Source of the DNA: Methanocaldococcus indicus
Lineage (GTDB): Archaea; AGJL01; Methanococci; Methanococcales; Methanocaldococcaceae
DNA: 64,000 bases
Assembly: GCF_049554935.1 (NCBI RefSeq)
Contig: NZ_CP186926.1
Coordinates: 1,024,001 to 1,088,000 of the forward strand
Direction: 5' to 3'
The position numbers and the translations under genes were made by a program. Of this stretch, positions 48,104 through 52,194 are shown in pieces (the stretch's first letter is position 1; the number at the start of each line of letters is the position of its first letter). A model generated the notes under the pieces. It searched no databases. It saw only the letters and a list, made by a program, of their open reading frames with translations, and was not told the origin of the DNA.

Positions 48104-48562
48104 CTATTCTATTACATTTAAATATTTTAAAATCCTTACCCATATAAGATTTAGTATTAAAACTATTGGAAATAAAATAAAGCTGATAATATTATGGATT
48201 TCATTATAGTTTAACAAATTATGATATTGAATAATTAAAATAATCCTTATTACATTAAAAAATTCTATCATAATAATACCAAAAAGAGCATATATAATTT
48301 TATAAACAATTGAGACTTTTGGTGTAGCTAAAATAAATGCTAAAAAAAGGGAGATTTCAAAAGAACATGTGCATGCTGGGATTATAACAAAAGCTATATT
48401 TTTTGAAAATATAATGTTGTTATATAATCCTAAATTTAAAATTTTTGAAATAAGTAATGCCAAAAAAACAGATAGATAATTTTCCAAAAATAAGGTAAAA
48501 AATGAATATATTATAAAAAAATATAACAAAAAAAATAAAATATATTTTTTTTTATCATCCAT
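48104..48562 (-). CDS. artD: Archaeosortase D-type membrane transpeptidase
   Basis: Cys (PACTC), Arg (NVIRI) and His (IHN) triad in a TM protein; adjacent to a PKD protein with PIP-CTERM-like tail. Confidence 0.8.
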   Translation of the reverse strand: MDDKKKYILFFLLYFFIIYSFFTLFLENYLSVFLALLISKILNLGLYNNIIFSKNIAFVIIPACTCSFEISLFLAFILATPKVSIVYKIIYALFGIIMIEFFNVIRIILIIQYHNLLNYNEIHNIISFILFPIVLILNLIWVRILKYLNVIE

Positions 48563-48776
48563 TTATAATTGCCTCTTTTACTTTATTTACTATATCAACT
48601 ACTTTATTAAGCTTTACAGTATTTGAGACAATATTTTCATTTTGTGCTTTTGTTGATGAACTTTCAACTGTCTTTAAATAATAAAATCCTAAAATAGCTG
48701 CAACTGCTACAACAGCTGCCATTAATATAGCAAATTCCATAGTAATTTGTCCTCTATTTTTTAATAATACTTTCAT
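48555..48776 (-). CDS. Class III signal peptide (type IV pilin-like) protein
   Basis: KNRG|QITMEFAILMAAVVAVAAIL. Confidence 0.9.
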   Translation of the reverse strand: MKVLLKNRGQITMEFAILMAAVVAVAAILGFYYLKTVESSSTKAQNENIVSNTVKLNKVVDIVNKVKEAIING

Positions 48777-51775
48777 TTTACTCCCCTTATTATATATATT
48801 AAAGCTATACTTGTTGATAGTATTATTAATATTTTTACATATATAGGAACTGGAATACTTTTACTTTCTTGTACAATTGTAATAAACTTAGTAGTAGAAT
48901 CTCTATTATTATCATTATCAACAACAGTTAGAGTAACTATATAAGTTCCAGGTTTGTTATAAACATGTGTTATAATTGGATTAGTTGTAGTTATTTTGGT
49001 TCCATCTCCAAAATCCCATATATATTCTACTATCTTTCCATCAATATCATAAGAGCTTGAAGCGTCAAATGTTACATTTAATCCATTTATTGTGAAATTG
49101 AATTTTGCTATTGGAGGATAATTAGTATTACCTCTAACAAATATTGTCTTTGATATAGAAGACTTTACACCTAAATCATTCCAAACAGTTAAGGTAACTG
49201 TATAATATCCTATATTTTTGTATATGTGAGTAGGATTTTTTTCTGTGGATGTAGAACCATCTCCAAAGTCCCATATATATTTTACAATATTTCCTGGATT
49301 AGATGTTGAGTTATCATAAAAATTAACAACTTCATTAACTTTTGGATACAATGGTGAGTAAGTAAAATCTGCTTTTAGGTAATAAACTGTTATTGTTTTC
49401 TTTATAGTAGATGTTGCATTTAAGTTATCGACAACAGTTAGAGTAACTATATAAGTTCCAGGTTTGTTATAAACATGTGTTATAATTGGATTAGTTGTAG
49501 TTATTTTGGTTCCATCACCAAAGTCCCATATATATTCTACTATCTTTCCATCTGGGTCATAGGAACTTAATGCATTAAAGGTTATATTATCATTATAATT
49601 TGGATATATTGGAGTGTAAGTAAAATCTGCTTTTGGAGGAAGATTTATAACACTAAATTTTTCAGTGGTAGTACCAATAGCTCCAAATCCATCCCAAACT
49701 GTTAATATAGCAGTATAATTACCAATAGGGAATTTGTGATAAATTATTTTTAACTCATTTGATGAATAATTCCATACTATATCTCCAGAGGAATTATAGA
49801 CAGTTAAATTAAATCCGTATATTTTTGCAGGAGGTTCATCTGGAGAAATGATATAACCTGAACCATCTGATAATTCTCTATTTGCATCAGGGTCATAAGA
49901 GTTTAGAGGATTAAATACAACTGAATCTCTATAACTTGCAGGATTTGGGTATATATAAAGAACAGCAACTGGATTATGGTTGTTTATAACCTTAACTTGT
50001 CTTGGTAGGAAATAAACTTTAGGGTCATATCCTTCAATGTAGTAAATTCCTTCTCTATTGATTTTATATGTTAAATTTTCAAATGATGTAACATAACTTA
50101 CATATTTTTCGGCATATTGGCATATTAAACCTGAATAGCCAATATAATAAAGTTCATCTAATAGTATATTGTTCTTTGTGTAATCAAGTAGATAAATCTC
50201 TAAGTAACCACCAATATAATTTTTAGGATATTTATAAATAACATTGAATGGCTCTCCTACTTTAACAATTGTTGGATTGATCCATAGCATTGAGCTGATA
50301 ATTTTATTATTCTTTATGACAGGACCAAAACCTACAGAAACTATTCCATTTTCATCAATTATCATTACATGTGCTTGATAATCAACATCATTATTTGGAT
50401 ATATATGAGTTGGAGAATTATCTAATGAATAAGTTCCATCTCCAAAACTCCAGAATACAAGTACTGGCTTACTATAAGGATATTCATAGGAATACTTTAT
50501 TCCACCATTAGTTTCTTCTGCTTTAACTACAACATCATAGTGGGTTTTTTGCTTTAATTTAAGTTCAATTGGAGAGCTTATTACCTTTGACCATAACTCA
50601 ACAATTCTATTGTCTTTATCATAAGATTTAAAGAATGTATTTTCATTAATAGTTGTAGGAATAATTTTATAAGTTGTATCTCCTACATCACCAACAACTA
50701 AATAATCTAATGTAGCAGAGGATGCAATAGAGTAATCTCCCCACCTATCTACATCCATCCAACAAATTGGATAGATAAATGGGAATTTATAAACATGTTC
50801 TCTCCCATAATTTGAATTGTATAATTTATAAGATGTTTCACTTCCATCTCCAAAGAATAAGAATATTTTAGTATAGTCCTCAGCGTCTTTAGGTTTAATA
50901 TATATAGGTTCATTTACTCTATATGCCATAGCATATTCATCTTCAACATTTACAGCTCCACTTTCATTCATTACATAATTTTCATTTCTTATAGGTTCAA
51001 AATATCCACCTCTTGGTCTATTTACTTTAATCCCACTATCCAAATAACCAACCATCACTCTACCAAAATTATCAATAACCAACACTCTTGGGTAGTAAAT
51101 TCCTGGTTTAGTATATATATGAGTCGGTGATTTCTCAAAAGAGAAAGTTCCATCTCCAAAACACCAAACATTAAATATAATGTTTCTATTTATAGAATAG
51201 TTAAATTTTACAGAATCTCCTTCTACAATCTCTGTTTTATCTACATTAATATCTACAGGAGTGGTATCTACACTTAATCCTAAAAATTTTACATTTATTG
51301 GACTTTCAGAGTAGTATTTTATGATTACTGTGTTATTTGTTGAATTATATAGTACTTCCCAATTTGTTTTTGAATTTGAAGGGCTACCATTAAAGATATA
51401 TGTTGTATTATAAATATTTCCAATTATTATCCAATTGTATGTTAATGCCTTTGAATATCCAGTGTTGTTTAAATATCCGCACCATGCAACTGGGTAGGCA
51501 AATGGAAATGTATATGTATGATTGACTACTTTATTATCTCCATAATCTGTTTCTACTAAATCTCCAAAATCCCATTTTGTATATCCATTATTAATAATAT
51601 CTTGAGCTACTGAATTAGGAGCTAATGCCTCAAATATTATAGTATTATTTACTTCTCCTGTATAGTTAGAGATATTCATTGTATTGTTGTGTATTAAAAT
51701 AATATTTCCATTTACATTTATATACAAAAATAAAAATAATAAAAATATTAAACCATATGGTTTATGTGTTTTCAT
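48773..51775 (-). CDS. Secreted PKD-repeat surface protein with PIP-CTERM-like sorting signal
   Basis: Signal peptide, many WDFGDG PKD units, C-terminal SIPVP + TM + basic tail. Confidence 0.92.
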   Translation of the reverse strand: MKTHKPYGLIFLLFLFLYINVNGNIILIHNNTMNISNYTGEVNNTIIFEALAPNSVAQDIINNGYTKWDFGDLVETDYGDNKVVNHTYTFPFAYPVAWCGYLNNTGYSKALTYNWIIIGNIYNTTYIFNGSPSNSKTNWEVLYNSTNNTVIIKYYSESPINVKFLGLSVDTTPVDINVDKTEIVEGDSVKFNYSINRNIIFNVWCFGDGTFSFEKSPTHIYTKPGIYYPRVLVIDNFGRVMVGYLDSGIKVNRPRGGYFEPIRNENYVMNESGAVNVEDEYAMAYRVNEPIYIKPKDAEDYTKIFLFFGDGSETSYKLYNSNYGREHVYKFPFIYPICWMDVDRWGDYSIASSATLDYLVVGDVGDTTYKIIPTTINENTFFKSYDKDNRIVELWSKVISSPIELKLKQKTHYDVVVKAEETNGGIKYSYEYPYSKPVLVFWSFGDGTYSLDNSPTHIYPNNDVDYQAHVMIIDENGIVSVGFGPVIKNNKIISSMLWINPTIVKVGEPFNVIYKYPKNYIGGYLEIYLLDYTKNNILLDELYYIGYSGLICQYAEKYVSYVTSFENLTYKINREGIYYIEGYDPKVYFLPRQVKVINNHNPVAVLYIYPNPASYRDSVVFNPLNSYDPDANRELSDGSGYIISPDEPPAKIYGFNLTVYNSSGDIVWNYSSNELKIIYHKFPIGNYTAILTVWDGFGAIGTTTEKFSVINLPPKADFTYTPIYPNYNDNITFNALSSYDPDGKIVEYIWDFGDGTKITTTNPIITHVYNKPGTYIVTLTVVDNLNATSTIKKTITVYYLKADFTYSPLYPKVNEVVNFYDNSTSNPGNIVKYIWDFGDGSTSTEKNPTHIYKNIGYYTVTLTVWNDLGVKSSISKTIFVRGNTNYPPIAKFNFTINGLNVTFDASSSYDIDGKIVEYIWDFGDGTKITTTNPIITHVYNKPGTYIVTLTVVDNDNNRDSTTKFITIVQESKSIPVPIYVKILIILSTSIALIYIIRGVK

Positions 51776-51799
51776 TACGTATCAACCTAAAATATTGTT

Positions 51800-52074
51800 A
51801 AGTTTTAACCGTTTCCCATTTCCATAGCTTATCATTGCATTTAATAACTTCTCATACAAACCGACAGCTATGGGAATGGGTTGTCCTTAACCCATAACTT
51901 CATCGGGAACACCGTTCCCTCTGCTATAGGCTCATTGGACTTCGGGCTGAACGGAGACAGCCCCATGAATCTTTTTATCAAATTAAATACAGCTACTGCA
52001 TCTCTATCGGCATAAAACCCACAATCAAAGCAATACATTAGCCTCAAAGGCAGAGCCCTATCATCGGCTAACAT
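51800..52074 (-). mobile_element. tnpB: TnpB-family IS 3' remnant (IS200/IS605 or IS607): C-terminal tnpB fragment plus structured right end
   Basis: CFDCGFYADRDAVAVFNL (zinc ribbon half plus RuvC-III); GC-enriched hairpins; 15-bp stem 51815-51829/51866-51880. Confidence 0.8.
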
Positions 52075-52133
52075 ATATGTTTAAGAGTAATTTATATGTT
52101 ATTGTATGCTACGAAAACTAAGAAACTGTTTCG

Positions 52134-52194
52134 AACCCTTCAGAGCTCATACGGTTCATCATAAAATCAGTTAAAACTAATCATCATCAGGGAA
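52134..52194 (-). ncRNA. Box C/D sRNA (sR8-like D guide)
   Basis: Minus strand ccctg-ATGATGA-ttagttttaa-CTGA-tttt-ATGATGA-accgtatgagct-CTGA-aggg, terminal stem CCCT/AGGG. Confidence 0.85.

Follow-up and report, generated by a model that had tools for sequence, protein, structure and literature searches.

Positions 52135 to 51809 (minus strand) of the analyzed window, a 64,000-nucleotide stretch of the genome of Methanocaldococcus indicus (here G000), contain what we interpret as a non-autonomous, internally deleted derivative of an IS607-type, tnpB-carrying insertion sequence that resembles MITEs and PATEs and survives as a stranded relic. We assign this reading a probability of roughly 0.7, and an ordinary relic is the most likely identity of the element. 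The element is ~330 bp long. Its left end, with a TATA-like box, is retained, as are the final 73 codons of tnpB and an omega-RNA scaffold of 158 nt abutting the right end (Table 1). As is typical of MITE- and PATE-like elements, the two ends are kept, the protein gene is not intact and related short copies occur elsewhere, the host genome itself holding a single copy. The parent insertion sequence circulates in the genus and in a neighboring family.

Table 1. The element, its components and the adjacent host features, in window coordinates
Feature	Position	Strand	Basis
C/D box sRNA directly upstream of the element, host sequence	52138..52191	-	Rfam sR41, 42 bits
AGGG at the left junction, target/TAM-like motif with GG as presumed core dinucleotide	52136..52139	-	host-derived
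Retained left end, with a GAAAC-A-GTTTC palindrome and TATA-like ATATAAAT at 52097-52090	52090..52135	-	match to full-length copies
68-aa ORF, C-terminal tnpB remnant (zinc-ribbon second CxxC and last RuvC Asp region)	51868..52074	-	TnpB homology
GC-rich block (GATGATAGGGCTCTGCCTTTGAGGC...; ...GGGCTCTGCCTTTGAGGC...) within the tnpB remnant	52034..52070	-	kept by shorter non-coding miniature copies
Omega-RNA scaffold, five helices, ending in GGGAAACGG	51809..51966	-	fold, covariation, covariance model
Helix 1	51963-51958/51949-51944	-	GGGCTG/CAGCCC
Helix 2	51940-51937/51886-51883	-	predicted fold
Helix 3	51932-51923/51898-51889	-	predicted fold
Helix 4	51919-51914/51910-51905	-	GGGAAC/GTTCCC
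Helix 5, long stem with one C.A mismatch	51880-51866/51829-51815	-	predicted fold
Would-be guide, first 20 nt of the right-end flank (TTAAAACTTAACAATATTTT)	51789..51808	-	right-end boundary
Gene for a PKD-domain surface protein (ATG 51775), 33 nt downstream of the right end	48773..51775	-	ORF and domain
Archaeosortase D, next gene after the PKD gene	48104..48562	-	TIGR04175, 167 bits

An earlier sequence-only reading had taken this region for the bare 3' end of tnpB, reduced to its last ~50 codons and bounded at 52100. The C-terminal tail is indeed present, but it comprises 73 codons, it results from an internal deletion rather than a 5' truncation, and the feature extends ~40 nt further, into a retained left end (52135 to ~52090). 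Full-length copies in related genomes align on both sides of the gap, and their match to 52139-52090 is located ~1.17-1.24 kb upstream of their match to 52095/52077-51805; the deletion comprises ~1170 nt. At the deletion junction, an ATA(A/G)AT microhomology, the left end is joined to the last ~290 nt. The TATA-like box lies exactly where the sequence-only reading had put it and is a conserved component of the left end, which in full-length copies (L007, L009, L020, L021 and others) is found ~125 nt upstream of the tnpB start; the closest full-length copy, in G019, has no such left end just upstream and carries a short resolvase-like frame instead. Homology to TnpB spans 52089 to 51871; compared to the 440-aa TnpB of a relative, the remnant covers residues 368-440, with 89% identity and one internal TAA. 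The remnant ORF, which begins MLADDRALPLRLMYCFDCGFYADRDAVAVFNLIKRF, gives a weak match to Pfam PF07282 (TNB domain; E 0.043). The GC-rich block within it may represent the 5' part of the omega RNA or a signal for its processing.

The right end was defined by the divergence of related copies: among 41 of these, similarity stops abruptly past GGGAAACGG, at 51809, with the exact GGGAAACGG present in 28 copies and the terminal GG in 34. With the junctions marked by a slash, the window reads AGGG/TTCGAAAC on the left and GGGAAACGG/ on the right. Of 16 copies, 13 have AGGG and two have AGAG directly before the left-end motif TT(C/T)GAAACAG, and one has neither. Because (A)GGG(G) also terminates the orthologous sRNAs at empty sites, we consider AGGG to be the host target sequence and the element proper to begin at 52135. 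GAAAC motifs are present at both ends, and neither terminal inverted repeats nor a target-site duplication were found on inspection of the window ends with their flanks (CTGAAGGG ... TTAAAAC) and of the aligned copies.

Given the AGGG target, the terminal GG and the lack of inverted repeats at these ends, together with the serine-transposase remnant beside the cognate tnpB in relatives, we place the element, on its sequence features, in the IS607 rather than the IS200/IS605 family. The consulted part of one account of IS607 (PMC6188088) describes a terminal GG, an invariant GG with a preferred (G)GG target and short direct-repeat motifs at the ends, with no inverted repeats or target duplication; a strict GG core, with TGGG as target and TAM, is given for CboIStron, an IStron of the same family, in the accessible portion of 10.1101/2023.11.20.567912. 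The GG core dinucleotide is found both at the terminus of the present element and at its target. In G012, a truncated fragment of 109 aa encoded immediately before the cognate tnpB scores 130.2 bits with NF033518 (IS607 family transposase), above the cut-off of 110, and in G019 a truncated short frame upstream of the closest full-length copy shows weak resolvase similarity (E 0.18), so that the link to a serine transposase comes from truncated remnants in two relatives, a complete tnpA-tnpB copy of this exact family not having been seen. In addition, a resolvase fragment adjoins a tnpB fragment in G016. Our first assumption, the IS1341 group of IS200/IS605, was dropped: no Y1 TnpA is adjacent to the copies, and both the ends and the resolvase remnants are IS607-like. 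An intact Y1 transposase (PF01797) was detected in only two of 16 relatives, G010 and G001, both of which hold copies of the element, far from the transposase gene.

When the 325-nt stretch was searched against 41 related genomes, matches at E <= 0.01 were obtained in 16, the host genome included, with substantial matches to full-length and miniature copies in 10 related genomes. Full-length copies (e.g. L005, L007, L020, L021, L010 and L013) encode a 421-440-aa TnpB with a clear TNB domain (PF07282, 53-58 bits), and the L005 protein passes NF040570, 'RNA-guided endonuclease TnpB' (101 bits, cut-off 100). Four miniature copies (L022, L023, L029 and L031) share the junction between left end and tnpB tail and have a further ~50-nt deletion; the protein-less derivatives thus form a nested series in which the window copy is the longest. 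Over 291 nt, the window copy shares 94% identity with a full-length copy (L005/L093, on G019:C109) from the genome of a member of another family. Because this identity far exceeds that of the flanking genes within the genus (70-82%), it suggests recent horizontal spread of the element. The insertion site is empty in the 15 relatives that retain the sRNA, and the element is, as judged by these comparisons, a recent arrival. The miniature copies are most numerous in G016, with 21 DNA matches and ~20 miniature copies, where the best TnpB frames do not exceed 260 aa and none is intact, no Y1 transposase was found, and resolvase is limited to a 64-aa fragment; with ~20 copies and no intact TnpB, Y1 or complete resolvase, this is a genome full of orphan guide-RNA scaffolds.

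The three stems described in the sequence-only reading are all present, two of the hairpins lying inside the remnant ORF and not, as had been stated, after it. The region folds beyond chance expectation, with z-scores of -4.79 for 205 nt and -6.60 for 289 nt and none of 200 shuffles as good in either case, and the GC content of the scaffold is 47%, compared to 28% for the genome. The five minimum-free-energy helices of the window were projected onto an alignment of 41 copies (40 distinct), where 89.9% of the cells are paired. Both sides have changed in 16 of the 40 pairs, compared to 7-9 in slid controls, and doubly changed cells number 63, compared to at most 20, although the projected structure, which comes from one of the aligned sequences, has some advantage over the slid controls in these counts. 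The covariation score was matched by none of 500 shuffles. Misalignment of the hairpin loop and of the 5' junction in the raw MAFFT alignment leaves RNAalifold with a poor consensus (-7.55 kcal/mol, 19 pairs).

Because the projected structure was taken from one of the aligned sequences, a covariance model was built without the window, from 38 copies that also excluded L013, which has no helix 1, L064, with an internal deletion, and the truncated L062 and L065. On this model, the window scores 183.7 bits, ranking fifth of 26 forward matches and falling within the range of the copies linked to intact tnpB (146-192 bits), so the stems have not decayed relative to intact copies; such decay was among the findings that the sequence-only reading had named as evidence against itself. 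Relative to the closest full-length copy, there are six differences in the scaffold, all of which leave pairing intact: read from the alignment, four are in loops or unpaired positions, one changes G-C to G.U and one changes A.C to A-U. This absence of decay would also fit selection for function, six changes being too few to tell. Helices 3 and 4 lie within the tnpB coding tail. Because the C-termini of TnpB (421 compared to 440 aa) end in different frames over conserved nucleotides, the tail appears to be under constraint at the RNA level. The models of Rfam 15, including HgcC (RF00062) and RAGATH-18, gave no match to 51809-52100 at E up to 10 except SCARNA21 at chance level (E 3.9), and none to 20 related loci at E up to 0.01. 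Covariation, the covariance-model score and the sharp right-end boundary together support the proposal, already made in the sequence-only reading, that the retained piece corresponds to the omega-RNA scaffold of a TnpB element.

The sR41 match directly upstream of the element (E 1.2e-07) is below the gathering score of 54, and all four boxes are present; the sRNA is conserved in 15 of 16 genomes of the genus, where AT-rich empty sites then follow. The AGGG at the junction belongs to the 3' terminal stem of the sRNA, and the insertion target is its 3' terminal AGG(G). Under the history that we propose, the element would have inserted at the AGGG formed by the 3' terminal stem of this conserved sRNA; it now lies 33 nt upstream of the PKD gene. 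It would be a young relic, stranded in a genome without TnpB, serine TnpA or Y1 TnpA, with stems that are intact owing to recency and not to use. Its transcription would be passive, from the TATA-like box in its own left end or by read-through from the sRNA, and the element probably contributes at least some of the promoter and 5' leader for the PKD and archaeosortase D genes.

This last suggestion derives from the gene order around the element. In nine of 11 relatives (L073-L083), the PKD orthologue follows, in the same orientation, a gene of ~145 aa with a KRGQIS-type N-terminus, which we read as putatively pilin-like. This gene is missing upstream of the PKD gene in the host genome, where its nearest homologue is ~680 kb away. 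We take this absence to indicate that a rearrangement has taken place at the locus, with its breakpoint at the mini-element, and that transcription of the PKD gene must start within or upstream of the element. We can only infer candidate sources for the promoter, namely the ATATAAAT of the left end, the conserved TTATTAAAT in the terminal hairpin loop (51847-51839) and read-through from the sRNA; the promoter and 5' leader of the PKD and archaeosortase D genes may thus come, at least in part, from the element.

A stronger version of this scenario, to which we give a minor share of the probability, is that the element has been co-opted as a promoter and/or structured 5' leader that drives or modulates the PKD and archaeosortase D genes, and that the scaffold is retained for that role. 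The 33 nt between the right end and the ATG, with an SD-like AGGT that implies a leadered mRNA, the conserved TATA-like box in the left end together with the conserved terminal-loop motif, and the loss of the upstream gene found in nine of 11 relatives would all be compatible with such a role. However, the promoter motifs were read by eye in DNA of 28% GC, and the supply of a promoter would not require an intact scaffold. Moreover, the remnant is predicted to pair with the 5' UTR and SD no better than expected by chance: pairing at least as good was obtained with 28 of 300 GC-matched 36-mers and with 22 of 300 shuffles. A leader that sequesters the SD through this long-range pairing was rejected for the same reason. 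Further exaptation, in which the orphan scaffold would be transcribed from the element's own left-end promoter and, without TnpB, would regulate the PKD adhesin and archaeosortase D genes either in the form of a long structured leader or after processing into a small RNA, appears improbable to us. If true, archaeal surface-protein expression would here be controlled by a riboregulator of transposon origin, which a rearrangement had placed at the 3' end of the gene for a tRNA-modifying sRNA.

The interpretation of the element as a stranded relic is consistent with the gene content of the host. The genome (1.436 Mb in two contigs, the second of 22 kb) is 99.25% complete. Searches of both contigs with PF07282, PF01385, NF040570 and the cognate protein revealed no TnpB besides the 73-residue remnant, apart from one zinc-ribbon-like match of 15.5 bits; nor does this genome contain a Y1 transposase (PF01797), a resolvase-domain protein or serine transposase, or a second copy of the element, the scaffold model and the DNA search each giving a single match. 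With no TnpB, serine TnpA or Y1 TnpA encoded in the genome, neither transposition of the element nor assembly of a guide-RNA nuclease complex is possible. The sequence-only reading had envisaged a stand-alone guide RNA that would act with a TnpB encoded elsewhere, and had named the lack of an intact cognate TnpB as evidence against itself; with no full-length tnpB copy and no second scaffold in the genome, that proposal is not supported for this genome.

For such a guide to act in trans, TnpB would have to be provided from elsewhere, for example by a plasmid, a virus or an unassembled replicon. In favor of this reading, the intact scaffold has a score similar to those of copies beside intact tnpB genes, and miniature elements encoding omega RNAs that need TnpB in trans have been described (PMC10055086, in the part consulted). 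Furthermore, G001 carries an IS607-type element with a second TnpB family on its small contig C2, so such genes can travel on small replicons. Nevertheless, we regard this reading as highly improbable, because no TnpB of any kind was found in a 99.25% complete genome, the 22-kb contig included, and because the guide matches only its own flank, which would become a target only upon excision, for which the transposase is missing. Specifically, no other genomic site matches the 20-nt guide with two or fewer mismatches; a single 16-mer match with one mismatch, at C1:482390, is preceded by CATC, not AGGG, and a site combining TAM and target would exist only after the element has been excised. A guide of 20-25 nt would extend from 51808 to ~51784. 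The sequence-only reading had it contain both the SD-like sequence and the start of the PKD gene; it does reach the AGGT but stops short of the ATG. The inclusion of the SD has little meaning because any omega-RNA guide is the DNA that flanks the right end, wherever the element landed.

Comparison with known systems places the element among kinds that have already been described. With the IS607 tnpB elements, such as CboIStron of C. botulinum and Helicobacter IS607 as characterized in the portions of the literature consulted, it shares the terminal GG, the (N)GGG target/TAM at the left junction and the lack of terminal inverted repeats and target duplication, and also the scaffold that overlaps the 3' end of tnpB and abuts the right end and, in relatives, a truncated serine-transposase remnant beside the cognate tnpB. 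Unlike these elements, the window copy lacks tnpA, nearly all of tnpB and a group I intron; its archaeal scaffold is outside every Rfam 15 model, and a complete autonomous copy of the exact family was not seen. The PATE- and MITE-like omega-RNA elements of Geobacillus (Meers et al., PMC10055086, as far as the consulted part goes) similarly combine both ends and a guide module with the absence of the protein gene, are multi-copy, as is the present family in relatives (21 DNA matches in G016), and need proteins in trans. However, the Geobacillus elements are of the IS200/IS605 type, moved by Y1 and housed in genomes that hold TnpB, whereas the present one is of the IS607 type, in a host without TnpB or any TnpA.

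In Halobacterium, sotRNAs and PATE RNAs (Gomes-Filho et al., PMC4615843, in the sections consulted) similarly include RNA that overlaps the 3' end of tnpB; one probable sotRNA was assigned to a tnpB pseudogene truncated to 120 bp, and overexpressed sotRNA and PATE RNA are reported to affect growth. Those transcripts were observed experimentally, whereas the present element is known from DNA alone, and the sotRNAs, which accompany IS1341-type tnpB, belong to a different sequence family, there being no match to HgcC (RF00062) here. By analogy with this sotRNA at a truncated tnpB and the growth effects, the element might encode a regulatory small RNA independent of TnpB, which we consider the least probable of all the readings, given that the window gives no pointer to a target, the host has a single copy and the youth of the insertion explains the conservation. 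Going by the consulted parts of these two studies, mini-elements with omega RNAs (PMC10055086) and a sotRNA at a truncated tnpB (PMC4615843) are already known kinds, to which the present element adds a member. Among papers naming Methanocaldococcus together with TnpB, judged by title and abstract, nothing was found on this element.

What the present analysis documents is an archaeal IS607-type guide-RNA scaffold that is not covered by any Rfam model, together with the likely target/TAM (AGGG) and the exact ends of the element. Such scaffolds persist as orphans after the loss of every protein partner, as one copy here and as ~20 in G016, which has no intact TnpB. For genome annotation, it follows that a pseudogene resembling the tail of tnpB can be a complete mini-element. 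The element is also flagged here as a case of transposon-derived sequence that is a probable source of the promoter or leader of a surface-protein gene. The cognate pairs of thermophilic TnpB and omega RNA in relatives could be of interest for genome editing.

Two additional observations concern the surroundings of the family and of the locus. A second IS607-type element (L094, L096 and L097, in G001:C2, G005 and G006; also L095 and L101) consists of a complete HTH-resolvase gene encoding 207-213 aa followed by a gene for a protein of 434-455 aa; in G014, coordinates tie the second gene to a TnpB that is only ~33% identical to that of the present family.

The D guide of the upstream sRNA (ACCGUAUGAGC) is complementary to the anticodon loop and the exon-intron junction of an intron-containing tRNA with the anticodon CAT (G000:C1:1276226-1276332; L091 927-1033), which was called by Rfam and missed by ARAGORN. 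Under the N+5 rule, this guide would direct 2'-O-methylation of C34 of the tRNA. The sRNA resembles the Haloferax box C/D guide for elongator pre-tRNA-Met (Joardar et al. 2011, as cited in the consulted part of PMC6601510).
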